A stretch of 64,000 nt of DNA from Leptospirillia bacterium (GCA_046754085.1 JBHHVE010000013.1:1190-65189), one strand, 5' to 3'. Counted from the first letter of the stretch, positions 7,208 to 23,250 are shown. Notes: a model not told the origin generated them from the sequence alone. A program made the numbers and translations.

Positions 7208-10200
7208 TCAGAAACGCCAGATCAGGTCGCCACCAACGCGTCCCTCTTCGAGGTCAAACGCGGGAACGTGCCGATAGTGCCCGGACAGACGGGCGGTGAG
7301 GCGCCCTCGAACGGTCCGCTCCGCCTCCGCGGTCAGTCCATGGTGGACGAAGTGGTCATTGGCCGGATCCTCGTCCCAACTCATACCCCACTCGTAGCGC
7401 AGCAGGTAAAAGCGGCACGGTCGCTCCCCCGGCGCCAGTTGCACGTACAGCACGGGCCCGGTCCGGTTCACGGTGTCATAAGCAAACGCGTTTTTGTTAA
7501 AGCGAACATGGTCCAGACGCGCCCCAAAGGTCAGTGGCGCAAGAGCCGGATGCACATAATCGGCCCACACCGCCGCCCGCAACTCCCGGTTGGACGGCGA
7601 CACCTGAGGACTGCCGCTCACCACCACAGTCACTGGCTCATAGCTACGGGTGGTGACCTGGGCGCCGAAACGGAACGGGAACGGCCGCCTCCAATGGTCA
7701 CTGATGGTGGCCTCCACAACCCGCACGAACACCAGATCACGCCCGACCGCCTCATCAAGGAAGCGCCCGAGCTGATAGTCCCGGGCGATACGGGCTTCCA
7801 TCCGGTGGTCGGAAAGGGTCAGACGCGCGCCACCGGAGATCCGCTGCAGGGTGCCGCCGTCGCTGTAGCCCCCCAAAGCATAGCGCCCGAACACATGGCT
7901 TCTGGGGGTCAGTTGCCGCTCCGCCTCAAGGTACAGGGTGCGCTCGCGGAACAATTGGTAGCTCTGTTGCGGTGGAATACTCCGGCCCAGAAACGGCCCC
8001 TGGGTGAATCCCGCCGAAAACGCCCGATCCCACCGCTGTCGTTGCCACGCAAAGGCAAGACGGGTGTAGCGCTTGTCGGCAATCGAGTTGGCATCGTTCG
8101 GCGAAAAATCGGCGAACCCGGCACTGGCGCTGACCCGGTCACCGTCCCGCGGCGTGAACCCGGCGGACAGGATGGCGTCTGAACGGTCAAAGTCGTAAAT
8201 CACGCCGCCGCTGCTCCGGTTCACCAGGGAATTGTCCCGAACCCGGTAGGTCGCCCCCAACTCAAGGCGCGGCGTCACGTGCTGACGACCATCCAGATAA
8301 AGGCTCCGGGTTTTGTAGCGCACCAGATTCGCGGGGCCGGACAGGGTCGAATCGGCGCGCCCATCCAGGTCGAGGACCACGGAATACTCGAAACCGGCCG
8401 CAAGCACCGGATGCCCCCCCGCCCGTGCCGCCATCCACCCCCGGCACAGGGCACAATCCCGCGGATACTCCTCGATCAGCGCCCGGTACTTTTCCTCCGC
8501 CGCGGCAAACCGAAGCTGGCGATAGTCGAGCTGCGCCGCCAGCTTGCGCCCCTCAAAAGAGTCCGGATCGGCCTTGAGGTGCTGTTCCAGCCACTCCGCC
8601 GCGCCCGGCGTGCCGGTCTGTGCCGGAAGCCCCGTGAACCAGTTTGCTTTTGACGGCCCCGAATTGCCGGAGCCATTCCTGCCGGCGTCGGCATCAGCCT
8701 CCCCCCGTTCGGCGATCTCCACAGCAGCCGCAAGCCGTTCCGCAGCAACCGCGAGACGGGTGGCGGCAACCGCAAGCTCGTCCCCTTCCTCACCCGGTTG
8801 TGGCGGCACCGCGGCAATGACCGCCACCTGCGTCATGGGCAGCGTGGGCAATGAGCCCAACTCCGCCATCAGGCGCGCCGCCATACCCTTCCGGCGGGTG
8901 GCGGCGGTTTCCAGCCGATATTCGGCAAGCGAGGGCGCGGGGGCGGTACCCGCCCGGACTGGCACCGCCACGTGGTCACCCGGATAAATCCGGTGCGGGT
9001 TATGGATGGCGGGATTGGCCCGCCATACGGCGCGCCAGGCCCGGGGAGTCCCCAGGAAACGGTTTGCGATCCGCCCCAGGGTATCGCCATCCCGCACCGT
9101 GTAATTCACCCGCTCGGGCTGACCGGTCAGGGCGGCGAGCCGGGTCCGGGGCACCGGCACCCACACCACCTTCCCCGGATGGATGAGGTAGGGGTCCGTC
9201 ATGTCCGGGTTGGCGGCAAGCAATTCAGCCCAGCGTCGAGCGTCACCCAGGTAGCGCCGGGCGATGTGGCTCAGGGTGTCGCCGGCAGATACCGTGTGGG
9301 AAAGCATCACCGTTTCCGGCCCGAAGCCCTTTCCGCCGCCTCCGGCGGCGGACGTCGTGGAGGCGGCGCCAGGGGTGAATTGCGCGGACGCGTCCGGCCC
9401 TGGCGATCCCCCCAGGTTATCCATGGCCAGTTCAATGTGGGCGCGGCCCAGCAATGCGCCCGGATGCGCCCGATCCTGTTCCAGGGCCGCAACGTAATGG
9501 ACGCGGGCGGTCTCATAGTCGCCCAGCCAGCGGTGCACGTCACCGGCCCGTACCCACAGGTCGGCCCGCTCCAGATGCATCCTCAGGGCGTCCCTGTAGA
9601 GCCGAACGGCATCGTCCAGATACCCCATCCGCTCAAATACCCGACCGAGGTCGATAACCCGCTCCGGATCGTCCGGGGAACGGTCCAGAAGCGCCTTAAA
9701 GTGCGCCGCCGCCGTGGGGTACCAGCGCAGGGAAAAGGCCATCTGCGCCAGCCTGCGCTCCCGCTCCTCGCCGGTGTAGGCCTGCCCGGCCAGGGCATAG
9801 GCCGGACGCAGCCGGCCCGTTTTCAGGTAGACCACGCTCAGGCCTTTTTGCGCGTCCCGGTAGCCCGGCGCAAGCTCAAGGGCGCGCGTGAGGCGCTGTT
9901 CGGACCGGCCCAGGTCCTCCGTCTGGAGGGCCAGCAGGCCGTCCCCCAACAGACCGTCAACATGGTCCGGGTCGATGGCAAGCAGACGGGAAAAGGCGTC
10001 CCGTGATTCATTCAGGTTGCCGGACCAGCGCAGTACGGTGCCCAGCCAGAACAGCGCCTCGGGCCGGTCTCCGGCATTTCTGTAAAGTTCGGCGGCGTGC
10101 TGAAAGTCGCCCGATTCACGTGCGGCATGGGCGGAGAAAAGACCGCCCGCTTCGCTCTCCGGAGCAGCCAGCGCACATGCCGGGAACATCAGCCAAAAGG

Positions 10201-10234
10201 CGATGACGAGGGTGGCCAGCCAGCGCACGCTCAC
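7208..10234 (-). CDS. Secreted TPR + 2x LysM + C-terminal outer-membrane beta-barrel protein (putative polysaccharide export porin)
   Basis: Signal peptide (..ACALA); TPR repeats; two LysM motifs (HTVSAGDTLSHIARRYLG.., YTVRDGDTLGRIANRFLG..); amphipathic strand-rich C-terminus ending in IWRF. Confidence 0.75.
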   Translation of the reverse strand: MSVRWLATLVIAFWLMFPACALAAPESEAGGLFSAHAARESGDFQHAAELYRNAGDRPEALFWLGTVLRWSGNLNESRDAFSRLLAIDPDHVDGLLGDGLLALQTEDLGRSEQRLTRALELAPGYRDAQKGLSVVYLKTGRLRPAYALAGQAYTGEERERRLAQMAFSLRWYPTAAAHFKALLDRSPDDPERVIDLGRVFERMGYLDDAVRLYRDALRMHLERADLWVRAGDVHRWLGDYETARVHYVAALEQDRAHPGALLGRAHIELAMDNLGGSPGPDASAQFTPGAASTTSAAGGGGKGFGPETVMLSHTVSAGDTLSHIARRYLGDARRWAELLAANPDMTDPYLIHPGKVVWVPVPRTRLAALTGQPERVNYTVRDGDTLGRIANRFLGTPRAWRAVWRANPAIHNPHRIYPGDHVAVPVRAGTAPAPSLAEYRLETAATRRKGMAARLMAELGSLPTLPMTQVAVIAAVPPQPGEEGDELAVAATRLAVAAERLAAAVEIAERGEADADAGRNGSGNSGPSKANWFTGLPAQTGTPGAAEWLEQHLKADPDSFEGRKLAAQLDYRQLRFAAAEEKYRALIEEYPRDCALCRGWMAARAGGHPVLAAGFEYSVVLDLDGRADSTLSGPANLVRYKTRSLYLDGRQHVTPRLELGATYRVRDNSLVNRSSGGVIYDFDRSDAILSAGFTPRDGDRVSASAGFADFSPNDANSIADKRYTRLAFAWQRQRWDRAFSAGFTQGPFLGRSIPPQQSYQLFRERTLYLEAERQLTPRSHVFGRYALGGYSDGGTLQRISGGARLTLSDHRMEARIARDYQLGRFLDEAVGRDLVFVRVVEATISDHWRRPFPFRFGAQVTTRSYEPVTVVVSGSPQVSPSNRELRAAVWADYVHPALAPLTFGARLDHVRFNKNAFAYDTVNRTGPVLYVQLAPGERPCRFYLLRYEWGMSWDEDPANDHFVHHGLTAEAERTVRGRLTARLSGHYRHVPAFDLEEGRVGGDLIWRF

Positions 10235-11679
10235 CCGCCTCCGCCACCCTGGGGCTCGGCGTGAGGCCTGAACGCCTCACTCTCGACCACTTCCCACTTG
10301 CGCCGGAAGGTGGCCAGCTGGATCAGTCCGCGCACCCGCCAGAAGACGTTCAACTGGCGATAGCCGAAGTTCTCCAGTATCGCAAACAGGATAAGCGTCA
10401 TGAGATGGCTCCACCCGGGGTACCGCCGCTCGGTCAACTCCTCGAGCAGCACGGCACCCACGGAGAGGAACACGCCGGTGAGCACCGACAGCGTGATGTA
10501 GAGTAGCAAAAAGTCGGTCGACAACACGCCAAGAACGGCGGAAAGTCCAACCACCAGGTAGCCGAACAACTCCACCAGCGGCCCGAACAGCTCCACGAAC
10601 TGGTACGGCACCCCGATCATGCCCACGGTGCCGTAGCGGGGACGGCCCAGCATGGGCAGGTGGGTCAGCACCGCCTCCCCCAGCCCCCGGTGCCAGCGGC
10701 GGCGCTGGGCACCCAGCGCCGCCAGATTGGTGGGCACCTGGGTCCAGCAGATCGGGTCGGCAATAAATGTAATCCGGTAATTTTCCTGGCTCCCCTGCAT
10801 GCGCCGGTGCAGCCTGAGCACCATCTCCATATCCTCGGCCACGGTACGGGTGTCATAACCGCCCACCTCCACGACCACGCTCTTCTTAAACATGGAGAAG
10901 GTGCCGGACAGAATCATCAGCGCACCGATGCTGCTCCATCCGGTGCGGCCGAACAGGAAGCAGCGCAGGTACTCCACCACTTGCATGCGCCCCAAAAAGT
11001 TCCGGGGCAGGCGAACCTCCTGAATCTGACCGTCCTGAAACGTACAGCCGTTCGCCACCCGCACAATGCCGCCGGTGGCGATGATCTCGTCCGGGGCACT
11101 GATAATCGGCCCCATCAGGCGCAACAGGGCGTTCCGTTCCAGCACCGAATCGGCATCCACAGAACAGAAGTAGGGGCTGCGGGACAGGTTAATCCCCACA
11201 TTCAGGGAATCGGACTTGCCGGAGTTGTCCTTGGTCACGACGGTCAGGCCCGGAATCTCGGGGCTGACAAAAAACCGCTTTACCGGCTCGGTGGGAATCA
11301 GCGGACGGTAGATCAGGTCCACCTCATGCAGTGAAAATGCCTCGATCAAATACCGCAGGGTGGCATCCTCGGAGCCATCATCGACCACGATCACCTCGTG
11401 GGACGGGTAGTTGAGGGCAAGAAGCGACTGGACTGTCTGAACAATATTGTTGGCCTCGTTGTACGCCGGCACGATCACGGTAACCGGCGGCGTGGTGGGA
11501 AGGCTCGCAAGGTGGGTGAAGGCGCCAAAGCGAAGCGAGCGGCGATGCCGCTCGGTGGCGATCGCGGAGACGAACAACAGGGCGAAATACACCCCGTTGA
11601 CAGCAATGTAATAAGACAGGATGAACAGGTTCAGCCACGGGATCAGGGTGGCAAACCCGGCGTGGAGCGTCACCAGCAT
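10231..11679 (-). CDS. Processive GT2 family glycosyltransferase (PgaC/IcaA-like synthase)
   Basis: VPAYNE, VDDGS, GKSDSLN, VDADS, AED and QRRRW motifs; N- and C-terminal TM helices. Confidence 0.9.
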   Translation of the reverse strand: MLVTLHAGFATLIPWLNLFILSYYIAVNGVYFALLFVSAIATERHRRSLRFGAFTHLASLPTTPPVTVIVPAYNEANNIVQTVQSLLALNYPSHEVIVVDDGSEDATLRYLIEAFSLHEVDLIYRPLIPTEPVKRFFVSPEIPGLTVVTKDNSGKSDSLNVGINLSRSPYFCSVDADSVLERNALLRLMGPIISAPDEIIATGGIVRVANGCTFQDGQIQEVRLPRNFLGRMQVVEYLRCFLFGRTGWSSIGALMILSGTFSMFKKSVVVEVGGYDTRTVAEDMEMVLRLHRRMQGSQENYRITFIADPICWTQVPTNLAALGAQRRRWHRGLGEAVLTHLPMLGRPRYGTVGMIGVPYQFVELFGPLVELFGYLVVGLSAVLGVLSTDFLLLYITLSVLTGVFLSVGAVLLEELTERRYPGWSHLMTLILFAILENFGYRQLNVFWRVRGLIQLATFRRKWEVVESEAFRPHAEPQGGGGG

Positions 11680-13058
11680 CAGACCTCCTCCGCTGCGGAG
11701 GCTGCGGCGGCTTCCCGTGCGGTGAGGTGGGCCGCTGCCGTTGCCCGTACCACCGGGTCGGGGTCTTCCGTGGCGGCCCGCTCAAGCACCCCCGTGACCC
11801 TCGGATGGGCCAGGGGCGCCAATATCCCGAGAACCCGCTGCCGAACCTTCGAGCGCCCGTGGGATATCGCCGCATGGGCCAGCATGGCCACCGCACCCGT
11901 GTTCGCCACCGCCGCCAGAAGGGCGGCGGCCGATCCCGGCCTGACCACACCCTCCACCTCCCGCTCCAGACCGTCGATGGCGTCGGAAATCACCCGGGTA
12001 CGCTGAAACTCTTCCACCACCTGCTGGCGGGCGTAGTGGTCGTCGGATGTCAGGAGCGTGCTGATAAGCACCTCCCGCGCTTCGGCACTCATGTTGGCCA
12101 GGATGTGTGCCGCTTCCTGACGCACCCGCCAATGGCTGTCAAACAGACGCCGCCCCAAAGGAGCAACCGCGGCCGGGTCGGCCAACAGGCCGAGGGCGCG
12201 CACCGCGTGCATGCGAACCACCCAGGCATCGTCTTCAAGACTGCCAATAATGGAGAACAGAGCGCTGCGCGCACCCACCTGACCCAGCGCCTGCACGGCC
12301 TTGGCCCGAACGTCGGGCTCCGCATCCGCAAGGCGTTCCGTTAGTTTTGGCACTGATGAGGATGCGCCTGCTTCCCCAAGCACATAGGCCGCCGCGCTCC
12401 GCACCCGCCACGACGGATGCTCCAGCATCGGCTGCAAGGCATCCGCCGCTTGCGGGCCAAATCGGGTGAGGCTGCCGGCCACCACCCGCTGAGACAGGTT
12501 TTCCTCCCCGCCCGCCACTGCCACCAACACTTCGGCCAGGGTGACCAAGGAACGGTCATCCACCAGGCGCCCCAGGGAACGGACCGCAACGGTGCGTACC
12601 TCCCGGTCCGGGTCTTCCGTGGCCGCCAGCAGCGCCTCCGCGATTTCCGGGCCGCGGTGATCCGCAAGCCATGCCGCTGCCATGGCCCGCTCCCAGCGGG
12701 AACCGCCGGTAAGCATATCCAGGTAGCGGCCGGTAATGCCGGCATCGCGCATAAACTCTTCCAGCCGCGCGGCCTGTTCCGGGCCCGCGCCGGCGAGGGC
12801 TTCGCGCAGGACATTTTCAAGGGCCTCCGCCTCTGATGAGCCGGGGGTGGGCAGGATATCGGGGAGTTCTTCGGGAGTGGGTGGAAATCCGGCACAGATT
12901 CGCGCCACCAGCGGAGCCTGTTGAACCTCGACCCGACCCTGGCGACGGCTGTGGATCACCTGCCGCAGCCGCAACACGGCAAGGGCTAACAAAAACAGGG
13001 TCGTGGCAACCACCAGGACAGTGATTGCCACAACAATCAGAATGCGGGCATATTCCAT
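11679..13058 (-). CDS. Membrane-anchored HEAT/PBS-lyase repeat protein
   Basis: N-terminal TM helix; repeated D.D..VR..A..ALG units. Confidence 0.85.
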   Translation of the reverse strand: MEYARILIVVAITVLVVATTLFLLALAVLRLRQVIHSRRQGRVEVQQAPLVARICAGFPPTPEELPDILPTPGSSEAEALENVLREALAGAGPEQAARLEEFMRDAGITGRYLDMLTGGSRWERAMAAAWLADHRGPEIAEALLAATEDPDREVRTVAVRSLGRLVDDRSLVTLAEVLVAVAGGEENLSQRVVAGSLTRFGPQAADALQPMLEHPSWRVRSAAAYVLGEAGASSSVPKLTERLADAEPDVRAKAVQALGQVGARSALFSIIGSLEDDAWVVRMHAVRALGLLADPAAVAPLGRRLFDSHWRVRQEAAHILANMSAEAREVLISTLLTSDDHYARQQVVEEFQRTRVISDAIDGLEREVEGVVRPGSAAALLAAVANTGAVAMLAHAAISHGRSKVRQRVLGILAPLAHPRVTGVLERAATEDPDPVVRATAAAHLTAREAAAASAAEEV

Positions 13059-13125
13059 TCAGTCCGACCCTGTTTGGATGGGAGTGCCCAACAATCGTGG
13101 CGAAATAACGGCCCGAAAGGCTCCA

Positions 13126-14187
13126 TCAGTTCGTCCCGGACCGAATCATCTCCTGAATAATCGCATGTGCAATTCGATCCACCGGCAGAACCTCCCCGAC
13201 CGAACCCAGCCGCAATGCCTCGCCCGGCATGCCGAACACGGCACAGGTCTGCCGGTTCTGCAGGAGCGTCACCGCCCCCGCCTGTTCGAGCGTGATCAGA
13301 CCTTCGGCCCCGTCCCGTCCCATACCGGTCAAAAGCACCGCCAGCAGATCGCCCCCCAGATCCTGCGCCGCACTTTCAAACAGAATGTCCACCGAGGGGC
13401 GGACGCTGTTTCTCAGTGGCGCATGAGACCGTATCAGCCAGCCGTTCCGGAACTCCAGGTGCACATCGGATGGAGCCAGAAGCACCTGACCGGCAAGTTG
13501 TGAAAGCGGCTCATCCCGTTCGGGAACCCGCACCTCCCGTCCGGAAGAACTGGAAAGCCACGTAGCCAGAGCGTCCCCGAACGAGTCGGCCACGTGGGCG
13601 ACGATTATAACAGGAACCGTCATGTCTTTCGGAAGACCCGAAAGCACTTTGGCCAGCGCCTGGGGCCCCCCGGTGGACGCCCCCATCAGCACCGCGCGGA
13701 TGTTCTGGTTCCCGGATGCGGGCACAAACCGTGGCGGCACCGCCGCGACAAGGCTCTCTTCACCCGCGTTGGGGACACAGGCCCTGATACTGGCAAGCAA
13801 CGCCTCGTTCCACCCCGGCTGCCGGTCGAACGCCTTATGATGTACCGCCGTTGCGCCCGCGTTCAGGGCCCGGGCCTCGGCGGCGGGGTCACTGAACGCG
13901 GAAACCACGATCACCGAGACGGATGCATTCCGTTTACGCATGAGACGGGTGGCGTCGACCCCGTCCAGTCCCGGCATGGCGACATCCATAAGCACCACGT
14001 CCGGCTCCAGGTCGATAATCCGCTGGGCCGCGTGCAGGCCGTTGCCCGCCTCACCCACCACCGCCATGTCCGGCTGGCGCGCCACCAGTTCGCGCAGAAA
14101 CATGCGGTACTGGAACGAATCGTCCACCACCAGCACGCGAACAGTGTCTTTCGACACCAGGGTTTTGGGTTTGGTCAGCGCCCTCAT
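13126..14187 (-). CDS. cheB: Chemotaxis methylesterase CheB (REC + methylesterase)
   Basis: VLVVDDS..DVVLMDVAMP; GASTGGP, VAH and LTGMGRDGA catalytic Ser/His/Asp. Confidence 0.93.
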   Translation of the reverse strand: MRALTKPKTLVSKDTVRVLVVDDSFQYRMFLRELVARQPDMAVVGEAGNGLHAAQRIIDLEPDVVLMDVAMPGLDGVDATRLMRKRNASVSVIVVSAFSDPAAEARALNAGATAVHHKAFDRQPGWNEALLASIRACVPNAGEESLVAAVPPRFVPASGNQNIRAVLMGASTGGPQALAKVLSGLPKDMTVPVIIVAHVADSFGDALATWLSSSSGREVRVPERDEPLSQLAGQVLLAPSDVHLEFRNGWLIRSHAPLRNSVRPSVDILFESAAQDLGGDLLAVLLTGMGRDGAEGLITLEQAGAVTLLQNRQTCAVFGMPGEALRLGSVGEVLPVDRIAHAIIQEMIRSGTN

Positions 14188-15185
14188 CCGCCCACCGACT
14201 CCGGTTCATCCGCATGATGGCACACGCAATTGCGCCCGGTTTCCTTGGCGCGATACAGGGCCGCGTCCGCCCTTGCGACCAGATCCTCCCACGATGACAA
14301 CTCGGCATGCCACTCGGCCACGCCAATGCTTGCGGTACAGCACACCTCCACCGGTGAAAAATCGATTCCTGAAATGGCCTGCCGTATCCGGTCCGCAATG
14401 ATCACCGCCCCTTCCAGGTTGGTGTCTGGCAATACCAGAATGAACTCCTCACCACCGTAGCGGCCGACCTTGTCCACCTCCCGCACCATATCGGACATCA
14501 CCTTCGACACATCGCGCAGCACCCGGTCTCCGAACTGGTGACCGTGGGTGTCGTTGAGTGATTTAAAGAAGTCGAGATCAAGCATGGCCACCGAAACCGG
14601 ATGCCGAAAACGCCGGGCACGCGCCACTTCTTCGATGAGGCATTCCTCGATATGACCCCGATTGGCCACATTGGTGAGGGCGTCGGTGGTGGCCATCTGG
14701 CTTAACTGGTTGTTCTTTTCCTCAAGCTGGGACAGGATGATCGCATTTTCCATGCTGGCGTCCACCAGCGCCTGATTGCGCCGGGAAAGTTCGTCCTGCA
14801 GGGACTTCAGGCGCAACTGGACCCGCACCCGCGCCATCAGTTCCTCCGCCTCGAACAGCTTGGGGATGTAGTCGTCGGCACCTTCGTCGAGGCCGCGCAC
14901 CCGGTCATCCACCTCGCCCATGGCGGTGAGCAGCATCACCGGCAAAAAGCCGTGGCCCTTCTGCAATTTGATCCAGTTGAGCACTTCGATGCCGTCGATG
15001 CCGGGCATCATCAGATCGAGCAACACCAGATCGGGCCACTCATCCGACTCTTCCAGGTAGTTCACGCATGATTCGCCATCGACAAATGCGGTGACCTGGT
15101 ACCCTTCCTGTTCCAGGTGGGAGCTCAGCATCATGCGCACCGTCAGGCTGTCATCGACCACCAGTACATGACCCAGGGACTTCAT
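14184..15185 (-). CDS. REC-GGDEF diguanylate cyclase (WspR-like)
   Basis: REC (DLVLLDLMMP), coiled coil, DLDFFKSLNDTHGHQFGD, REVD I-site, RYGGEEF. Confidence 0.92.
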   Translation of the reverse strand: MKSLGHVLVVDDSLTVRMMLSSHLEQEGYQVTAFVDGESCVNYLEESDEWPDLVLLDLMMPGIDGIEVLNWIKLQKGHGFLPVMLLTAMGEVDDRVRGLDEGADDYIPKLFEAEELMARVRVQLRLKSLQDELSRRNQALVDASMENAIILSQLEEKNNQLSQMATTDALTNVANRGHIEECLIEEVARARRFRHPVSVAMLDLDFFKSLNDTHGHQFGDRVLRDVSKVMSDMVREVDKVGRYGGEEFILVLPDTNLEGAVIIADRIRQAISGIDFSPVEVCCTASIGVAEWHAELSSWEDLVARADAALYRAKETGRNCVCHHADEPESVGG

Positions 15186-17557
15186 TACGATTCTCCCTGG
15201 ATTAAACGGGCCACTGTATCCGACAGCATCTTCTGGGTCGTTTCGCCCTTAACCAGATAGGCGTCGGCGCCAGCCTGTTCACCTCGGCTGAGAGAGCCGG
15301 GACTGTTCAGGGAGGACATCAGCACCACGGGAAGGTCACGGGTGCCCGCCTGTTCCCGAATGTGCCTGAGCAGGTTATAGCCGGTCATGCGCGGCATTTC
15401 CACGTCACTGATCACCAGATCGATGCCGCCCTGGGCAAGCTTTGTCAGGCCGTCCTCGCCATCCACGGCAATCACCACCCGGTATCCAGCCCGCTCCAGC
15501 ATCCCCTTTTCCATCATGCGGGCACTCAGGGAGTCGTCCACCACCAGCACGGTTTTCATGCCCTTGGCGGGCGCGGGGGATGTCGGGGAAGCGCCACCGG
15601 AAGTCGACGGCGGTATTGGGTTGTCACCACCCGAAACGGTGGCAGGCTTATGGGCGGCAAGGGCAAACAGCGCCTCAAGATCTAAAATCACCGCCGGCTT
15701 TCCGCTGGCAAGCAGCGTCATGCCCGCCACCCTGGGCAACTCGCCCACATGGGGCGCGAGCGGCTTCACAATAATGGTCCGGACCCCGACCACCCGATCG
15801 ATACCGATCACGATCCGCCGCTTTCCAAACCGGAGAATCAAGGCGGAGTCCGACATACCGGAGGAGGGGGTTTCCACCACCTGATCCATCAACAAGAGCG
15901 GCAGCGCCACCCCGTCCACGTTGACCACCGGGTGTCCGGCGCACACATCACGCACCAGGTTGTCCATCGGTCGCACCTGCACCACCGACTCACGCGGCAC
16001 CGCGAAAGAGCGGCCGTTCCATGCAAACAGGAAGGCCTCCATGGTGGACAGGTCCACCGGCAGTTGCATGCGGATCTCGGAGCCGCCCCGGGGGAGGTTG
16101 CGCAACGTGAGCCACCCTTTCAACTGTCGGATCGCCGCATGCACCACATCAAGCCCGACCCCGCGGCCAGACACCTGTGTGACCTGGTCGACGGTGGAAA
16201 ATCCCGGGGTGATCAACCAGTGAAGCACCCCTTCCGGATTCGTCAAAGAGGGGTCCGAGGCATCGCATAACCCCTGATCCAGCACTTGTTTACGAATGCG
16301 TTCGAGATCAAATCCGGCACCGTCGTCACATACGGTGACCGTCAGGCGGGAACCCTGCCGATAGAAACGCACGTTGACTGCGCCGCACTCCGGTTTGCCT
16401 TGCCGCAGCCGTTCCTCCGGCGCTTCCAGCCCGTGATCGATGGCGTTTCTGAGCAGATGGTGCAGCGGTTCCCGCAGTCCGTCCAGCAGGGCGCGGTCCA
16501 GTTCAATCGACTCGCCCTTGATCGTAAGCCGAACCTGTTTTCCCAATAACCGTGCGGTTTCCCGGGTCACCAGTTGCATTGCGGTGGTCAGGGTGGAAGC
16601 CGGCAGCATGCGCAGGTCCATCACACCGTCGTGGATGTTGGAGGTCACCTGATCAAACTGGCTGGTACGACCCTTGACATCGATGGCCATTCCCCGGAAT
16701 GCCTCCTTGAGAGCCACCGTGTGGATACGGCCGAGGATGCCGTACAGAACCTCCCCCTGAAGGGTGTTCGAGAGCGCCTCTTTCACCTCACCGATCTGGG
16801 ACCACTCCTGAATCTGGCTCAACGCCTGCATCACCCGCTGGGCGTTCTGACTGAGGATACGCACACGGCCACTGTGCTCGTTCAACCAGATGCGCTGGAC
16901 GATCAACTCCCCCGCCAGGTTCGCCAACCCGTCGATCTTGCTCAGGGCAACGCGCAGATAGGCTTGCTCGGGTCCGCCCGTGGGCCCCTGTTCCACTACC
17001 GGGGACTCGGTCTCAGCCGCGTCCTCAGGGACGCCGGAATCCGGCTCGGAGGCGCCTTCCTGGAAATCATCTGCGCCATCCAACCCGTCCCCGGAACCCG
17101 GCTCGTCAAGGGCGGCTGTGGAGACACCCCGGGCAGTAACGGCGTCTGTGGAGTCCTGTTCGGCGGGCGAGGCAGGTGCCTCGCCCCGGGCCGCGGCCTT
17201 GGTGGCCTCAAGTTCCGTTACTATTGGCACTATGTCGTAATCCGGGCCGTCGATACCAATGGCGGCCACCATTTCGTCGATGACCTGGACCGCCCTTAAC
17301 AGGCTGCTGATCGCCTCCCCCGAGGGGAGCACTCCGTCATCGCGAAACACCCCCAGGACATCCTCGATACGGTGCGCAACCGTGCCCAGATCATCCAGCG
17401 AGACCATGCGGGCGGAACCCTTCAGGGTGTGGGCAAGGCGAAACAGGGTACGGATGTTCTCCGGATCCGAGGGGGTGTTCTCAAGCGCCAGCAGCCCGCA
17501 GCTCAGGCCTTCCAGGTGCTCCGCCGCCTCCATCTTGAAAAATTCGCGAACGTCCAT
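15185..17557 (-). CDS. cheA: Hybrid CheA kinase with C-terminal receiver (WspE-like)
   Basis: HPt AHTLKG, HLLRNAIDHG, DDGAG, PGFST, SGRGVGLDVV, CheW domain, REC DLVISDVEMP; start ATG 17557. Confidence 0.93.
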   Translation of the reverse strand: MDVREFFKMEAAEHLEGLSCGLLALENTPSDPENIRTLFRLAHTLKGSARMVSLDDLGTVAHRIEDVLGVFRDDGVLPSGEAISSLLRAVQVIDEMVAAIGIDGPDYDIVPIVTELEATKAAARGEAPASPAEQDSTDAVTARGVSTAALDEPGSGDGLDGADDFQEGASEPDSGVPEDAAETESPVVEQGPTGGPEQAYLRVALSKIDGLANLAGELIVQRIWLNEHSGRVRILSQNAQRVMQALSQIQEWSQIGEVKEALSNTLQGEVLYGILGRIHTVALKEAFRGMAIDVKGRTSQFDQVTSNIHDGVMDLRMLPASTLTTAMQLVTRETARLLGKQVRLTIKGESIELDRALLDGLREPLHHLLRNAIDHGLEAPEERLRQGKPECGAVNVRFYRQGSRLTVTVCDDGAGFDLERIRKQVLDQGLCDASDPSLTNPEGVLHWLITPGFSTVDQVTQVSGRGVGLDVVHAAIRQLKGWLTLRNLPRGGSEIRMQLPVDLSTMEAFLFAWNGRSFAVPRESVVQVRPMDNLVRDVCAGHPVVNVDGVALPLLLMDQVVETPSSGMSDSALILRFGKRRIVIGIDRVVGVRTIIVKPLAPHVGELPRVAGMTLLASGKPAVILDLEALFALAAHKPATVSGGDNPIPPSTSGGASPTSPAPAKGMKTVLVVDDSLSARMMEKGMLERAGYRVVIAVDGEDGLTKLAQGGIDLVISDVEMPRMTGYNLLRHIREQAGTRDLPVVLMSSLNSPGSLSRGEQAGADAYLVKGETTQKMLSDTVARLIQGES

Positions 17558-17641
17558 CAGGGCACCCGCGCCACGGCAAATGCCGCCCGGAAGCCGGGCC
17601 GGGCAAACCACATGAAAAACAGTCCGTTACGCACCATGGCG

Positions 17642-19573
17642 TTATTTACCCACCAGCTTGGAGAGGTTTTCCGCGGTTTTGCTCAGATCTGCCGCGGTGA
17701 TCAGGGCCTCCTCCGAGCGCTTCGACACATTTTCGGCGACCTCTTTGGCCTCGTCCACGAACGCATCCACACCGGACACCGCGTCACTCTGCTCCTGGGC
17801 GGAGAGGAAAATCGACCCGGCCATGTCAGACACATGACTGACCGCCCCGACGATCGCGTCCAGACGTTCGGTCACCATGGTCATCAGGTCGGCGCCTTCG
17901 TTGACCGCCCCCTTGCCTCGTTCGGTGGCGCCCTGGGTATCCTCCACGGCCTGCTGCACCCGCTTGATCATGTCGCGGATTTCCTGGGTCGCCACCTGGG
18001 AACGATTGGCAAGCCTGCGCACCTGTTTGGCCACCACCGCGAAGCGGGCACCGGATTCTCCCGCACCCGCCGACTCGATGGTGGCATTGAAGGAGAGCAG
18101 CTTGGTCTGGTCGACCAGTTCGTTCAGGATGGCCAGGATGCCGTCCATCATCTCGGTCTGGTGGCGGGTATCTTCCATGGCCTGGGAAATTTCCCGCGCC
18201 TGTTTCAGAATGGCGTCCATACGCCCCTGAGAGCCCCGCAGCACCTCCAGTCCCTGCACACACTCGAGGCTGGCGCTGTCGGTCTGCCTGGCCATTTCCT
18301 CTGTCTGCCCGCGGATGCCGGTCAGGGCCGCCTGGAACTCCAGAATGGTGTTCGACACCTTATCGATGTGCTCCACCTGAGTGCCCGTTTCACGGGCCTG
18401 CTCTGCGGTTTCCTCACGCATCTGGGCGGAAAGCTCGTCCAGCGCGCCACTGGCGACCCCGATCTGGCGGTTGAATACGCCCACGCTGCGGTAAATCCAG
18501 AAGCCCATCGCACCGGTCAGAGCCAGGACCAGGGCCAGACCGGCCAGAGAACGTTTCCTGAGGGCGTCGCCGAATTCCGCGCTCTCCGTGGTGGTTGAGG
18601 AAATTCCCTGACTGGTGCCATCCGACAGGGTACTCAGCACCCACTTGATGGATTCCAGGGTGGGGGCGATTTCGGTCTGGTAGAAATACAGGTCCCGCCG
18701 CCAATCCTCCGCGTCGCGGCTCGCAAATGCCTCATCAAACACGTCAAACAGTTCGGCGCGGTTCCGCGTCAGCTCCCCGTGGAGTTCCTTGAAAGCCGGG
18801 CCAGCGGACTCAAAGGTGAAGGTGAGCAACTGGAAAATACCCTCATTGCGTTGCTGTTGTGCGACAAACGCCTCCCGATAGCGGGGCTCCTGGTTGAACA
18901 GGTAGCCACGCAGGTTGCTCATCAATGCACCTAGGCTGTCCTGATACCCCCAGAGCGCCGACAGCACCATGGGATCCGCCGCGGTATCCTTTGCCAGCCA
19001 GCGCTCCATGAGCTTGTCCATGTATCGGGCCGACTTTCCCGCCAACTGCTGACCCCGGGTGTTGATCAGGTGCGCCGAGTGGAAGTTGTCCGGTCGGGAC
19101 CGGATGATGAAGACCTCCTCGGCCTGCTGTGAAAGCTTGTCGATCAGGGTCTTGGCCCCGGACACCAGTCGCACCGTGGATGCATTCTCAAGGTCGTCCG
19201 TGGGTGCATTTTTTGAAGGGGCCGGACTGTCCGCCTGTCTGGCCTGACGCGCGGCAAACTCATTGAAGCTGAGGCGAACTATCTCCAGGCTGCTTTTATA
19301 GCGCTCCTGTTCGGCCACATTGCCGGTAAACAAAAACGCCTCCAGCGCGCTCTGGACATCGAGGGTGTTGCTGACCAGCGCCGTGACCATGATGGAGTCG
19401 GGCACCATCTGCTCCGACACCGTTGCCTGCATGTGAGCGTTCTGCGCCAGACCCCGGATCAAGGGGATGGACAGCACCACCAGCAGAAACAGGATCACAC
19501 TCACCGCCAGAACGATTCGGCGTCCGGGACTGGTTTCCCGACGGAGGGTCCATTGAAACCGTTTGCGGGCCAC
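17642..19573 (-). CDS. Methyl-accepting chemotaxis protein with large periplasmic helical sensor
   Basis: Two TM helices; tip QTKLLSFNATIESAGAGESGARFAVVAKQVRRLA. Confidence 0.9.
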   Translation of the reverse strand: MARKRFQWTLRRETSPGRRIVLAVSVILFLLVVLSIPLIRGLAQNAHMQATVSEQMVPDSIMVTALVSNTLDVQSALEAFLFTGNVAEQERYKSSLEIVRLSFNEFAARQARQADSPAPSKNAPTDDLENASTVRLVSGAKTLIDKLSQQAEEVFIIRSRPDNFHSAHLINTRGQQLAGKSARYMDKLMERWLAKDTAADPMVLSALWGYQDSLGALMSNLRGYLFNQEPRYREAFVAQQQRNEGIFQLLTFTFESAGPAFKELHGELTRNRAELFDVFDEAFASRDAEDWRRDLYFYQTEIAPTLESIKWVLSTLSDGTSQGISSTTTESAEFGDALRKRSLAGLALVLALTGAMGFWIYRSVGVFNRQIGVASGALDELSAQMREETAEQARETGTQVEHIDKVSNTILEFQAALTGIRGQTEEMARQTDSASLECVQGLEVLRGSQGRMDAILKQAREISQAMEDTRHQTEMMDGILAILNELVDQTKLLSFNATIESAGAGESGARFAVVAKQVRRLANRSQVATQEIRDMIKRVQQAVEDTQGATERGKGAVNEGADLMTMVTERLDAIVGAVSHVSDMAGSIFLSAQEQSDAVSGVDAFVDEAKEVAENVSKRSEEALITAADLSKTAENLSKLVGK

Positions 19574-19576
19574 CGG

Positions 19577-21103
19577 CTACACCTCCTCCCGGATATTACC
19601 GCCAGCCATGAACTCCAGTTCCATTGCGGTTCTGGACAGGTTTTCCACGGTTTCCAGGGTTTCGCTCGATTTTTTCTCGGACTCTCCGGACACCTGGGAC
19701 AGGGATTCCACCGCCTCGGTTACCTGCTCCACCGCCACCCGTTGTTCCCGCGCGGTCATCTCGATCTCCTGAATCGAATCCGCGGTCTTGGTCACCAGCA
19801 TCAGCAGGGCATCGAAATTTTCCGCGATACGCGCGGTATCCTCGATACCCTGCTCCACCGCATTCACACCACCCACCGTGGCCTCACTGGTCACACGGGC
19901 GGTTTCCTGAATGTCTTCGATCAGGGCGCGAATCTCTTCGGTTGACTCCACCGCGCGCTCCGCCAGCATACGGATCTCCTCGGCCACCACGGCGAAGCGG
20001 CGTCCGGCCTCACCGGCCCCGGCGGCCTCGATGGTGGCGTTGATCGAAAGCAGATTGGTCTGGGAAGCCATCTCATTGATGATCTCCAGCACACTGTTGA
20101 TCTGTTGCGCCTTTTCCACCAAGGAGTTCATGTGGTCGGTCACGCGCCCCACCTGACCCTTGATCTCGCCCATCCCCTTCTGGGAATGGGACAACAGGGC
20201 GTGGCCCTTATGGCACTCATCGGCCGCATCCTTGGAGGTCTGCACCATGTGCCGGCTGTTTTCCGACATGTTGCGGCTGGTGGCCACCAACTCCTGCATG
20301 GTGGTTGAAATCTGGACCGCCGCGGAGGCGTGCTCGGCGGCACTCGCCACCTGATACTGGGCCGCCCCGGCCAACTGCCGGGTGGAGAGGGAAATCTGGC
20401 GGATCGGCCGATCCAGTCCCTTGAGAATGCGCCACGTCAGGAAAATCCCGGTGGACACGCTCAACAGCAGCAGGATGCTGCCCAGGGCCACAACCTTCGG
20501 GAGCCCCTTCTTCAGGACGGAGCGTACGTCATTCCATTCCTCATCCAGCAGCAGTTCCATATGGTGATTTAGACGCTCGATGCGAAGGTCCAGGTCGTAT
20601 TCCAGCGCCACCAGACGCGGGTGTTCGCCCTCCTGGTGCATATACTCCCCGATCGGGGTTCCAAGTTCTTGAATGGCCATCTGCTCCAGTTCGGCAAACA
20701 GGGTGGAGATCGTCGTCAGCTCCATCTGTTCGACCAACTCGCTGGAATGGAGACGGCCGGCATGTGCCTGGAACTGTTCCGAGGCGCGCACACGACCCGC
20801 GCGGGCATCCTCGGCAAAGCCCATTTCCCACTGGTTCATGGCGCGATCCAGTTCCCGCGTCGCCAACTGGATACCGTGTACGCTGTCGCTGGTTTGACGT
20901 ATCTCGGCCACACGGCTGAGCCGCGGCTCCACCTCGATCATCACCCAGAAGCTCAACACAACACTCACAACGATGGAGATGGCCACCAGGGCGATACCGA
21001 CCGCCAGAAGCCGACGGGCGGGAGCAACCCGGAGTCGCTCAGGTCGCATATCACCTTCATCCATCATGGTTTCGGATTTTTTCGGATCGCTCATGGCCAG
21101 CAC
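19577..21103 (-). CDS. Methyl-accepting chemotaxis protein
   Basis: Two TM helices; tip QTNLLSINATIEAAGAGEAGRRFAVVAEEIRMLA. Confidence 0.9.
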   Translation of the reverse strand: MLAMSDPKKSETMMDEGDMRPERLRVAPARRLLAVGIALVAISIVVSVVLSFWVMIEVEPRLSRVAEIRQTSDSVHGIQLATRELDRAMNQWEMGFAEDARAGRVRASEQFQAHAGRLHSSELVEQMELTTISTLFAELEQMAIQELGTPIGEYMHQEGEHPRLVALEYDLDLRIERLNHHMELLLDEEWNDVRSVLKKGLPKVVALGSILLLLSVSTGIFLTWRILKGLDRPIRQISLSTRQLAGAAQYQVASAAEHASAAVQISTTMQELVATSRNMSENSRHMVQTSKDAADECHKGHALLSHSQKGMGEIKGQVGRVTDHMNSLVEKAQQINSVLEIINEMASQTNLLSINATIEAAGAGEAGRRFAVVAEEIRMLAERAVESTEEIRALIEDIQETARVTSEATVGGVNAVEQGIEDTARIAENFDALLMLVTKTADSIQEIEMTAREQRVAVEQVTEAVESLSQVSGESEKKSSETLETVENLSRTAMELEFMAGGNIREEV

Positions 21104-21136
21104 AGCCTTTCCTCTTCAAAAAACACCGCGCCGCCC

Positions 21137-21655
21137 TCAGCAACGCGCATCAAGCTGAATAAACAGGTTGTCCAGATCGGGAAACAGCACCAGGTTGCTC
21201 TCCGCAAATGCAGTCTCCCGCACCATCTGTCTGAGTCCCGGCGGCAAATTGGCGGGGGGATCGCTTCGCTCATAGTCGCCAAGGGCAACCAGGCGGCCGA
21301 TTTCGGTGACTGACAGACCCAGGTTGAAACCGGGCCCCTTCATCACCACCACCTCACCCCCGGGTTCCCTCAGGGGTGGATAGCCGAACATGGCCGGTAA
21401 GTCGTATACGGCCACGATCTCCCCCTGGAGGTTGATGACCCCAAGCAGGTGTGTGGGCGAACCGGGCAGCGGGGTCAGGTCCGCATGGCGGACCAGCCGC
21501 AGCACACGGTTAATCGGCAATGCAAAGCGCTCCCGGTCCACATGCACCAGCAGGTGTTCCGGGTTACCGTGCTGGCTGTCCGCCAGATCCTGGGCAAAGC
21601 CCTCATCGAAATCCGCCCGAAGGTTGGTCAGCCGCTGTTCCAGTCCCGTTTTCAA
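21137..21655 (-). CDS. cheW: CheW adaptor protein
   Basis: FALPINRV..LTPLPGSPTHLLGVINLQGEIVAVYDL. Confidence 0.85.
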   Translation of the reverse strand: MKTGLEQRLTNLRADFDEGFAQDLADSQHGNPEHLLVHVDRERFALPINRVLRLVRHADLTPLPGSPTHLLGVINLQGEIVAVYDLPAMFGYPPLREPGGEVVVMKGPGFNLGLSVTEIGRLVALGDYERSDPPANLPPGLRQMVRETAFAESNLVLFPDLDNLFIQLDARC

Positions 21656-21689
21656 AAAACCCTCTCCCCGTCCGTTACGTCATGCCGGA

Positions 21690-22136
21690 TCAGGCCGCCA
21701 CCGGCCCGCTCAATAGCTTCGCCAACCGATCCGCGCCCAGTAGATGAAACAACTGACCGTCCAGTTCGAGGAGGCCGATTTTGGCCGAACCAGCCTGTGA
21801 ACCGCTCTCCGTCACAACGGCCTGGGGGTCGTAATCGACGATGTCGTCCACCCAGTCCACCTGCCAGTGGCATGGGCCTTGCGGGGTACGGATGGCCAGC
21901 ATCCAGGGACGCCTCTGATACGGATCGCCCTGGTCGGAACCCCCTTCAAGCACCTGGCCGAGGTCGTAAACTCGCACCAGATCGCCGTGCAGCCGGATCA
22001 CGCCCAGCACCGGTTCGGGCGCACCGGGTTCTTCCTCCACTTCAGGCATCCTGCCCACCTCGTGAAGGTCGAGAATGTCCATGGCGTAACGGACACCCCG
22101 TACGCTAAAAACCAGCATCTGGCCGGATGATTCCAC
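21690..22136 (-). CDS. cheW: CheW adaptor protein
   Basis: LVFSVRGVRYAMDI..PGAPEPVLGVIRLHGDLVRVYDL. Confidence 0.85.
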   Translation of the reverse strand: MESSGQMLVFSVRGVRYAMDILDLHEVGRMPEVEEEPGAPEPVLGVIRLHGDLVRVYDLGQVLEGGSDQGDPYQRRPWMLAIRTPQGPCHWQVDWVDDIVDYDPQAVVTESGSQAGSAKIGLLELDGQLFHLLGADRLAKLLSGPVAA

Positions 22137-22253: not shown

Positions 22254-22282
22254 TTGTCAGGGCAAGGGGACAAACCTATACT
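22254..22282 (+). promoter_or_regulatory. Sigma70 promoter of phoH
   Basis: TTGTCA-N17-TATACT, 7 nt before ATG 22290. Confidence 0.6.
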
Positions 22283-22289
22283 CGAAGGC

Positions 22290-23228
22290 ATGACCACCCA
22301 CACCCTGGTTCTCCAGGAGCACCTCGACACCGCCGGTTTGTTTGGCATGTACGATGCCCACCTCAAGGCCATAGAGGCCGCGCTGGGGGTGGTGATCGTC
22401 GCCCGGGGCCAGAACCTCACGATCAACGGCCCGGAAAGCGCCGTCCACGCCACCAAAAAAGTGCTGACGCAGCTTTCCGAGAGACTGCTGGAGCGGGGCG
22501 CCCTCAGCCCGGATGACGTGCAATTCACACTGCTTCAGGTCACCAAAGGCGCTCCGGCGGAAACCACTCTGTCGCTGCCGGGAAAAGCCCACCCGCTGAT
22601 GCCGCGTTCCGCCAACCAGGCCTACTATCTCAAGGCCATCGCCGAACATGACCTGGTGCTTGGCATTGGCCCTGCCGGTACCGGAAAGACCTATCTGGCC
22701 ATGGCCTCCGCCGTATCGGCATACAACCGTAAGGAGGTGCGCCGCATCATCCTGACCCGGCCGGCGGTAGAGGCGGGGGAGCGCCTGGGCTTTTTGCCCG
22801 GCGATCTGGTGGAGAAGGTCAACCCTTACCTGAGACCCCTTTACGATGCGCTCTACGACATGATGCCGCCGGACAAGGTGGCACAGCTTCTGGAGCGCAA
22901 TGAAATCGAAATCGCACCCTTGGCGTTCATGCGCGGACGCACCCTGAACGACGCCTTCGTCATACTGGACGAGGCTCAGAACACCACCTCGGACCAGATG
23001 CATATGTTTCTGACCCGCTTCGGCGAGGATTCCAAAGTGGTGGTCACCGGCGACGTCACCCAGGTGGATCTCGGCCCCGGAGAAATTTCGGGCCTGGTGG
23101 AAGCCGAAGGCATCCTGGACGGTATAAAAGGGGTTAGCGTTGTCCGTTTTGAGGTCGGCGACGTCGTCCGCCACCCGCTGGTGGCCCGCATCGTCCAGGC
23201 TTACGAGGACCACCGCCGCGACCTCTGA
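22290..23228 (+). CDS. phoH: PhoH-like ATPase (YbeZ)
   Basis: [50 protein letters not shown]. Confidence 0.95.
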
Positions 23229-23250
23229 GGTCGCGGCGTGAGAACAGACC

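Follow-up and report, generated by a model that had tools for sequence, protein, structure and literature searches.

A Wsp-like chemosensory gene set and diguanylate cyclase joined in a predicted operon to a putative HEAT-repeat-partnered exopolysaccharide synthase in Nitrospirota

In a 64,000-nt stretch of DNA from a Leptospirillia bacterium of the Nitrospirota (GCA_046754085.1 JBHHVE010000013.1:1190-65189; hereafter the window), ten consecutive co-oriented genes on the minus strand, positions 7208-22136, appear to join a chemosensory array and a diguanylate cyclase to a machinery for the synthesis and export of a polysaccharide. In the direction of transcription, the listing of open reading frames (ORFs) and the Pfam matches give CheW, CheW, two methyl-accepting chemotaxis proteins (MCPs), a hybrid CheA kinase with a receiver domain (CheA-REC), a REC-GGEEF cyclase, CheB, a HEAT-repeat protein with one transmembrane (TM) helix, a family 2 glycosyltransferase (GT2) and a TPR-LysM-beta-barrel protein. 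With a probability that we put at roughly 0.6, the sensor, the cyclase and the exopolysaccharide (EPS) trio are one operon with real coupling between its halves, in which the signal arrives at the cytoplasmic face of HEAT and GT2, and cyclic di-GMP (c-di-GMP) is the favoured carrier of that signal. The window is taken from contig C13 of a 2.7-Mb assembly that is 98% complete.

Judging from their spacing, the ten genes probably constitute a single operon. Four junctions are start/stop overlaps (CheA/cyclase by 1 nt, cyclase/CheB by 4 nt, HEAT/GT2 by 1 nt and GT2/TPR-barrel by 4 nt), and the other gaps measure 34 nt between the cheW genes, 33 nt from cheW to the first MCP, 3 nt between the MCPs, 30 nt from the second MCP to CheA and, as the maximum, 67 nt between cheB and HEAT. 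This last spacer (13059-13125, minus strand) is the junction between the sensory and the effector genes, and a scan reported neither promoter-like nor terminator-like sites within it; since the counts of such sites across the operon region were not above those in shuffled sequences, the scan is evidence neither way. The gene order, the overlaps and the 67-nt gap were all found as an original prediction, made from this DNA alone, had described them.

The GT2 (10231-11679), matched by the Pfam families Glycos_transf_2, Glyco_tranf_2_3 and Glyco_trans_2_3, has the features of a membrane-embedded, processive synthase and translocase. Its motifs D101, D175/D177, E282-D283 and Q325-R326-R328-W329 are unchanged across an alignment of 17 sequences, and its AlphaFold2 model (predicted local distance difference test, pLDDT, 84; predicted template modelling score, pTM, 0.85) matches over the whole length the folds of Chlorella virus hyaluronan synthase (TMq 0.63), Xenopus HAS1, BcsA and yeast Chs1. 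By sequence it falls below the threshold of every curated family, with 135.7 vs 422.3 bits for PgaC_IcaA, 54.7 vs 699.1 for CelA and 43 vs 550 for NodC. The gene directly upstream (11679-13058) encodes a protein of 459 aa in which a TM helix (residues 6-24) is followed by about eight HEAT repeats of the PBS-lyase type (HEAT_2, 1.3e-45), and because a basic stretch comes after this single N-terminal helix, the repeats are expected to be cytoplasmic. A sequence search of solved structures returned for the HEAT protein only designed alphaRep proteins, the HEAT repeat domain-containing protein 6veh, MTH187 and a phycocyanobilin lyase subunit, and a search of the ESM Atlas returned generic HEAT-repeat names only. 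We propose that it is an accessory or regulatory subunit of the synthase.

Structure prediction supports the formation of a complex between the two proteins. When HEAT and GT2 were co-folded, each with its own alignment, in three runs and alongside three controls, the interface score ipSAE reached 0.67 (runs 0.64-0.67), while the best of the three controls scored 0.00; for reference, a value of 0.67 is reached by 58 of 80 solved complexes and by 2 of 110 mismatched pairs. The runs share at least 92% of their contacts, with a partner pLDDT of at least 83, and we know of no solved similar complex that the model could have remembered. In the predicted complex the TM helix of HEAT (residues 1-33) packs against GT2 helices 389-430, and the repeats contact GT2 residues 118-143 and 193-197. 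The first of these contact regions lies in a segment, residues 116-145, that breaks the generic GT2 Pfam match and holds the family-invariant residues Y124, R125, T130 and P143.

The last gene of the operon (7208-10234) encodes 1008 aa, which comprise a signal peptide, a TPR region at about residues 35-266 (9437-10132; TPR_2, TPR_19 and TPR_16), two LysM domains at about residues 310-427 (8954-9307; LysM 1.9e-17, in two stretches) and a C-terminal part of about 400 aa to which Pfam gives no match, including none to YaiO. The AlphaFold2 model of residues 560-1008 (pLDDT 88.7, pTM 0.80) shows three helices followed by some 20-22 strands and an aromatic end, so that the C-terminus, at about residues 610-1008 (7211-8407, ending ...LIWRF), is predicted to be a large outer-membrane beta-barrel. 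In VIA-align comparisons the model scores Z 18.0 with OccAB4, 15.3 with BcsC, 15.3 with PelBC and 14.7 with PgaA, and the BcsC and PelB alignments span both the helices and the barrel. Because many barrels, substrate porins and TonB-dependent receptors among them, score within a narrow range in both Foldseek and VIA-align, no specific exporter family can be assigned. The barrel sequence is rare, with 11 matches in 1.84 billion representative proteins, eight of them from the same lineage and three from distant TPR proteins whose C-terminus is equally unannotated. A profile comparison with two TPR-barrel proteins of the YaiO type aligned the TPR part alone (probability 94%), and a metagenome scan with the barrel alignment gave six loci, all too short upstream to show che genes.

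The sensory genes have the composition of a Wsp-like array. A WspB/D-like coupling protein (cheW, 21690-22136; Pfam CheW 2.1e-15) and a second copy (21137-21655; 1e-19) are followed by two transmembrane MCPs, one of 508 aa (19577-21103; MCPsignal 7.5e-33) with hydrophobic segments at residues 32-50 and 204-222 and a periplasmic domain of about 150 aa, the other of 643 aa (17642-19573; MCPsignal 5.4e-29) with segments at 20-38 and 342-360 and a periplasmic domain of about 300 aa. The hybrid CheA-REC histidine kinase (15185-17611, 808 aa, WspE-like) carries Hpt, H-kinase_dim, HATPase_c, CheW and Response_reg domains, the WspR-like diguanylate cyclase (14184-15185) carries Response_reg (4.6e-28) and GGDEF (1.4e-44), and the WspF-like methylesterase CheB (13126-14187; CheB_methylest 1.5e-52) has a receiver of its own (Response_reg 1.1e-21). 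In the cyclase the motif REVD-x5-GGEEF (REVD-KVGRY-GGEEF) supplies an RxxD I-site and an A-site. Pfam finds no stand-alone CheY among the ten genes, because every receiver of the cluster is fused to another domain; on this point, as on the WspE/WspR logic of a CheA-REC paired with a receiver-cyclase and accompanied by CheB and two CheW, the original prediction holds. The Wsp system of Pseudomonas comprises WspA-F and WspR, with wspB-wspC-wspD in the order cheW-cheR-cheW. The operon resembles it in its membrane MCP, two CheW, hybrid CheA-REC, CheB, an I-site REC-GGDEF output and lack of CheY, but differs in having two MCPs rather than one, in placing them after the CheW genes and the cyclase before CheB, in lacking CheR, in its Nitrospirota host and in its fusion to polysaccharide genes. 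We call the set Wsp-like by architecture, and not a proven Wsp orthologue, because the NCBIfam output contains no Wsp-specific model and the best family of the cyclase, PleD, is matched below threshold (279.8 bits vs a cut-off of 474).

Conservation within the family argues that sensor, cyclase and synthase work together. We located the CheA-REC orthologue in each of seven genomes from seven genera (G000, which contains the window, to G006); in all six of the others it is full-length and 43-51% identical. Four of the seven carry the whole operon in synteny, flanked by phoH and yqeY-dnaG, at protein identities of 40-69%, and it is from this retention of a tight operon across four genera that joint function is suggested. 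The full ten-gene order is present in G000, G001 and G003; in G002 the genes lie on two contig pieces, the cyclase abuts HEAT without CheB between them, and the TPR-barrel protein has no LysM. The RxxD and GGEEF motifs of the cyclase are kept in six of the seven genomes, G005 having GGEEY. Two sister genera come closer still to Wsp, with a CheR bearing C-terminal TPR repeats between their two cheW genes (L012:15846-17372 in G001, L011:16139-18043 in G003). LysM occurs two to three times in G001, G003 and G005. The ORF that follows cheB in G005 (L119:14592-15803) combines three LysM domains with a signal peptide and a short TPR region, and runs into a contig end of VTQ repeats.

Beyond this family, the HEAT-GT2 pair is not peculiar to the window; it belongs to a large unnamed family that is usually found with a two-component receiver. 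Relatives of the GT2 made up 6223 of 8000 scored candidates at E <= 0.001, those listed being 48-71% identical. A locus survey with one genome per species covered 537 GT2 relatives, and the best 80 loci among them were retained and domain-mapped; the survey counts given here and below refer to these 80. Of the 70 loci that extend 1300 nt or more upstream of GT2, 69 have HEAT as the gene immediately before it; they span about 15 phyla including archaea. Where there was room to see the next gene, a single-domain response regulator stands directly 5' of HEAT (29 of 65 loci). A same-strand GGDEF gene within 2.5 kb upstream was seen in four loci, L064, L066, L092 and one from the window's family. 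The lineages represented include Acidobacteriota, Thermodesulfobacteriota, Actinomycetota, Bacillota (with cultured Clostridium and Halolactibacillus), Bacteroidota, Gemmatimonadota, Elusimicrobia and a Methanomicrobia metagenome-assembled genome (MAG). By Pfam, an acidobacterial locus has a TPR and YaiO-domain barrel downstream of the pair (3.5e-34), a Solirubrobacter locus a CHASE3-HAMP-PAS histidine kinase upstream, and a Bacteroidota MAG a hybrid kinase downstream. RefSeq annotates a response regulator, a HEAT repeat protein and a GT2 on a plasmid of the haloarchaeon Salinirubellus (NZ_CP147842.1, L123, WDJ58_RS24995-25005), and on Mesorhizobium ciceri pMESCI01 (MESCI_RS31990-32015) an ATP-binding protein, two response regulators, a YaiO family barrel protein, HEAT and GT2, with an Hpt protein adjoining the cluster. 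The recurrence of the order response regulator-HEAT-GT2 in archaea (L123 and the Methanomicrobia MAG, L085) implies that the module does not depend on a bacterial envelope.

Among sampled Nitrospirota genomes, 78 of 401 hold the GT2 at E <= 1e-100. From these we examined further loci, 20 on long contigs out of about 36 matches at 44-51% identity plus one at 42%, for which 13 kb upstream was fetched; HEAT is adjacent to GT2 in 19 of the 20. One of the Nitrospirota genomes, G130 (L132), was considered as a second case of che linkage and rejected: its che cluster (CheA, CheD, GAF, REC, MCP, CheW, CheR and CheB) lies 3.6 kb off, with radC, a flavoprotein gene and fur in between. Two Nitrospirota GT2 matches, G013:C3:40358-41752 and G146:C58:1015-2451, contain one in-frame TAA each and may be broken copies or sequencing errors. 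In two loci with a YaiO-type barrel, one acidobacterial (L035:13593-16112) and one from Nitrospirota (L132:983-3016), a gene of the Sulfatase family (alkaline-phosphatase superfamily) lies just downstream; its large product may be a polymer-modifying enzyme, and the cluster in the window has no such gene. LysM recurs with HEAT-GT2 in unrelated lineages: a deltaproteobacterial locus encodes, just upstream of the pair, a 952-aa protein with a C-terminal LysM (L025:5467-8325), and LysM matches also occur downstream in L083 and L091.

Taken together, these features suggest the following way of working. The sensory half would be a non-motility Wsp-like array of two transmembrane MCPs, two CheW and the hybrid CheA-REC, whose kinase would phosphorylate both the REC-GGEEF cyclase, leading to c-di-GMP, and CheB, leading to a reset of the receptors. 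The effector half would be a trans-envelope, synthase-dependent EPS machine, in which the GT2 would polymerise a beta-linked polymer and translocate it across the inner membrane, HEAT would act as a subunit of GT2 whose repeats clamp the family-specific insertion in the catalytic domain (residues 118-143), and the TPR-LysM-barrel protein would guide the chain across the periplasm and the outer membrane. The che-cyclase set would then occupy the regulatory position that is held elsewhere by a single-domain response regulator. We expect the signal to act post-translationally at the HEAT/GT2 face, c-di-GMP being bound either directly, as in PgaCD, or by way of a PilZ protein encoded elsewhere in the genome; docking of a phosphorylated receiver seems the less likely route. 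As to the polymer, the best curated match (PgaC_IcaA), the fold of hyaluronan synthase and the LysM domains are hints, and no more than hints, of a product containing N-acetylglucosamine (GlcNAc).

A number of observations weigh against so close a coupling. The linkage of che genes to the pair is narrow: CheA, CheW or CheB stands beside it in none of the 79 surveyed loci outside the family, and che genes are directly linked to it in none of the 20 further Nitrospirota loci, so that among the loci surveyed the join appears confined to the window's Nitrospirota family. Even there it is incomplete. In the phoH-to-yqeY slot of G004, cheW-cheW-MCP-MCP-cheA-cyclase-cheB is followed directly by yqeY-dnaG; G006 ends in the same way, its contig being cut inside the second MCP; and in G005 cheB is followed by the intact TPR-LysM ORF, with HEAT-GT2 absent between them. 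No GT2 of the HEAT-GT2 kind was found in these three genomes at E <= 1e-60 or 1e-100, at a completeness of 96-99%. Since three of seven genomes keep the che-cyclase set without HEAT-GT2, the sensor is not dedicated to the polymer and the pathway must have other outputs. The conserved linkage that the original prediction proposed to look for is thus present in the family, as a full operon in three genomes and in two pieces in a fourth, and absent from the surveyed loci outside it, and its picture of a self-contained, locally wired module is weakened.

The control by c-di-GMP is likewise open to objection. That the synthase depends on c-di-GMP, as the original prediction had it, is something we infer and do not read from a receptor, as a Pfam and NCBIfam search of the trio yields neither PilZ nor MshEN nor a degenerate GGDEF/EAL domain, although a PgaCD-like c-di-GMP site outside any recognised domain would escape such a search. 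Genome-wide there are 11 GGDEF and 21 PilZ matches, with no PilZ on the operon's contig, and with these numbers the cyclase could feed a global c-di-GMP pool. The partners of HEAT-GT2 elsewhere, single-domain regulators and histidine kinases, suggest phosphorylation as the ancestral input. We also considered whether the receiver of the cyclase descends from the receiver of the module, and rejected this: it scores 108 bits on the module-receiver profile vs 145-156 for module receivers, and four OmpR-like regulators of the same genome outscore it (120-127 bits).

Adaptation of the receptors also seems to lack a local component. The cluster contains no CheR, a point that the original prediction did not raise; the three CheR genes of the genome are on different contigs, two of them belonging to its two other che clusters. 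The slot that holds CheR-TPR in two sister genera is a 34-nt gap here (window 21656-21689), and G004 and G005 likewise have no CheR-TPR there; an orthologue of the sister-genus protein, sought in the window's genome, gave none, the best match being 31% identical. The dedicated CheR-TPR would thus have been lost in this genome, and, there being no CheR in the cluster, methylation would either be carried out by one of the three in other parts of the genome or be done without. Contig C35 of the same genome begins (G000:C35:1-3024) with matches to CheB-methylesterase and CheR about 270 nt from each other, the latter inside an open frame of 861 aa, and the CheB/CheR protein there may be fused or multidomain.

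One could read the gaps in the family as mere co-location: a general che-cyclase regulator and, behind it or merely under its promoter, a dispensable EPS cassette, any coupling being transcriptional or through the global c-di-GMP pool. The che sets of G004 and G006 that lead directly to yqeY, the absence of HEAT-GT2 in G005, the many cyclases and PilZ proteins of the genome and the restriction of the linkage to one family would all be expected on this account. It is harder to reconcile with a tightly spaced fusion retained in four genera whose proteins are 40-69% identical, and with an operon interrupted only by a 67-nt spacer in which no terminator is predicted. The phylogeny of the sensory genes bears on the same point. 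In a FastTree phylogeny of concatenated CheA, cyclase and MCP2 from the seven genomes, unrooted and displayed with a midpoint root (with partial input for the cyclase of G002, the MCP of G006 and the CheA of G001 and G003), G004 and G006 group together (support 1.0) and are joined by G000 (0.84), while G001, G002 and G003 fall on the other side. As genomes with the trio thus occur on both sides, the fusion is old in the family and long retained; most simply, on these sequences, it would be ancestral and have been lost at least once or twice. We accordingly regard co-location without dedicated wiring as distinctly unlikely.

A second account keeps the coupling but changes its chemistry, in that HEAT would dock a phosphorylated receiver, that of the cyclase, CheB or CheA, with c-di-GMP as a parallel output and not the activator. 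Much in the distribution of the pair speaks for it: the single-domain receivers that immediately precede HEAT in 29 of 65 loci, the response regulator-HEAT-GT2 order on the haloarchaeal plasmid, the regulators and Hpt protein of pMESCI01, and the kinases beside the pair in Solirubrobacter and the Bacteroidota MAG. Within the family, too, the gene directly 5' of HEAT always bears a receiver, CheB in G000, G001 and G003 and REC-GGDEF in G002, and the absence of a c-di-GMP receptor domain from the trio fits as well. Set against this, the three che receivers are unlike those of the module (108, 80 and 48 bits vs 145-156), 36 of the 65 loci have no adjacent receiver, and in L064 and L066 a REC-GGDEF gene lies just upstream of REC-HEAT-GT2, so that cyclases and module recur together. 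We hold direct phosphorelay to be unlikely, though not to be dismissed. A further doubt concerns the product, which might be a cell-bound or periplasmic glycan, for instance a GlcNAc-rich layer held by LysM, or the barrel might serve another cargo. The position of the LysM domains between TPR region and barrel, the resemblance of the barrel of about 20-22 strands to substrate porins and TonB-dependent receptors besides EPS exporters, and a cluster in which Pfam finds no deacetylase, hydrolase or lyase gene could be taken in this sense. A TPR-barrel gene right after a processive GT2, with a 4-nt overlap, is however the arrangement known from Pga, Bcs and Pel exporters, the BcsC and PelB alignments cover helices as well as barrel, and a TPR-YaiO barrel takes the same position in other diderm lineages, which leaves this possibility very improbable. 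The coupled operon with a signal at the HEAT/GT2 face remains the reading that we prefer.

Compared with the known systems, the trio has the two features of the synthase-dependent class, a GT2 with D, DxD, ED and QxxRW motifs and, on the evidence of the model, a TPR-joined barrel, in keeping with the architecture originally predicted. One close likeness is to PgaABCD/IcaADBC. PgaC_IcaA is the best curated family for the GT2 (2e-39), and two N-terminal and three C-terminal synthase helices, a membrane accessory subunit and a TPR-barrel exporter are shared; moreover, c-di-GMP acts on PgaCD without a PilZ domain. The differences are nonetheless substantial: the shortfall from the PgaC model (TIGR03937) noted above is accompanied by a score of 23 vs 366.65 bits for PgaA (TIGR03939), the accessory subunit is a HEAT protein of 459 aa and not PgaD/IcaD, no PgaB deacetylase is among the ten genes, and the modelled barrel is larger than PgaA and carries LysM domains. 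With BcsA-BcsB-BcsC the operon has in common the fold of a processive membrane GT2 with QxxRW and the TPR-barrel exporter (Z 15.3 to BcsC), but it is without BcsB and without PilZ, and its GT2 is far from CelA. The low scores for PgaC, PgaA and CelA agree with the earlier view that the trio is none of pga, bcs, pel or alg. The class I hyaluronan synthases of Chlorella virus and Xenopus (HAS1) give the best whole-length match to the GT2 model (TMq 0.57-0.64, E about 1e-14), at 15-17% sequence identity; they act alone, with neither a HEAT partner nor an outer-membrane exporter. Also close are the unnamed clusters of the form (histidine kinase)-REC-[YaiO-type barrel]-HEAT-GT2, whose GT2 is 41-42% identical, whose HEAT and GT2 genes are adjacent and overlapping (M. 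ciceri, Salinirubellus), and which have a receiver-bearing gene directly upstream and, in diderm members, a TPR-barrel exporter. Their input is two-component or phosphorelay, through a single-domain receiver, whereas the operon in the window has a chemosensory array and a cyclase, with CheB upstream of HEAT.

The effector set had been put forward as novel, which stands for the trio, in that it is none of Pga, Bcs, Pel or Alg, but not for the HEAT-GT2 pair, which is widespread. In the literature searchable without subscription journals and supplements, we found no description of a HEAT partner of a PgaC-like GT2, of the function of YaiO/YaiP or of a che-linked version, nor of a role for YaiO-linked GT2 clusters; as far as these searches go, none of the unnamed receiver-HEAT-GT2 clusters has been characterised. 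What is new here is the accessory subunit, the divergent exporter barrel and the regulatory fusion; the synthase-dependent architecture is known, and the system is not categorically new. Synthase-dependent EPS systems (cellulose, poly-N-acetylglucosamine, alginate and Pel) are textbook targets of c-di-GMP, and to our knowledge they are few, with nearly all examples in Proteobacteria and Firmicutes. HEAT-GT2, with or without a TPR-barrel exporter, would add a further one, present in many phyla, on rhizobial plasmids and in haloarchaea, and as its usual neighbour is a response regulator, it is a candidate for a phosphorylation-gated polysaccharide synthase. The operon in the window is the one place at which this platform and a complete set of Wsp-like sensor and cyclase genes are physically joined. 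Tentatively, and with rather more doubt than belief, one could speculate that HEAT-GT2 represents a new and very widespread class of synthase, spanning Bacteria and Archaea and both monoderms and diderms, in which HEAT receives the signal, gated in most cases by a phospho-regulator and rewired here to a Wsp-like array and c-di-GMP. If this were true, one synthase platform would naturally switch between phosphorylation and second-messenger control. The operon offers a defined pair of components for the question of how c-di-GMP or a receiver domain addresses a HEAT-repeat synthase subunit, and the family offers natural deletion variants, che sets with and without the effector trio, for comparative work.

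On its downstream side the operon is followed on the same strand, after a gap of 249 nt, by yqeY, dnaG and rpoD, and a sigma-70-like site is located at 7075-7047. At the opposite end phoH (starting at 22254) is divergent and separated from the first cheW by a 117-nt spacer. Behind phoH, on the plus strand, lies a 7TM receptor with an HD hydrolase (7TMR-HDED, 7TM-7TMR_HD and HD; the two genes together span window 22254-25557), and this divergent pair is syntenic with the operon in every family genome that is readable on that side. The window contains a second GGDEF-domain gene, at about 59614-60120 on the minus strand (C13:60803-61309), in a position unrelated to the operon. A search of sequencing runs returned no RNA entry that contains the stretch, and four DNA entries, from one hydrothermal vent metagenome study, that contain all or part of it.

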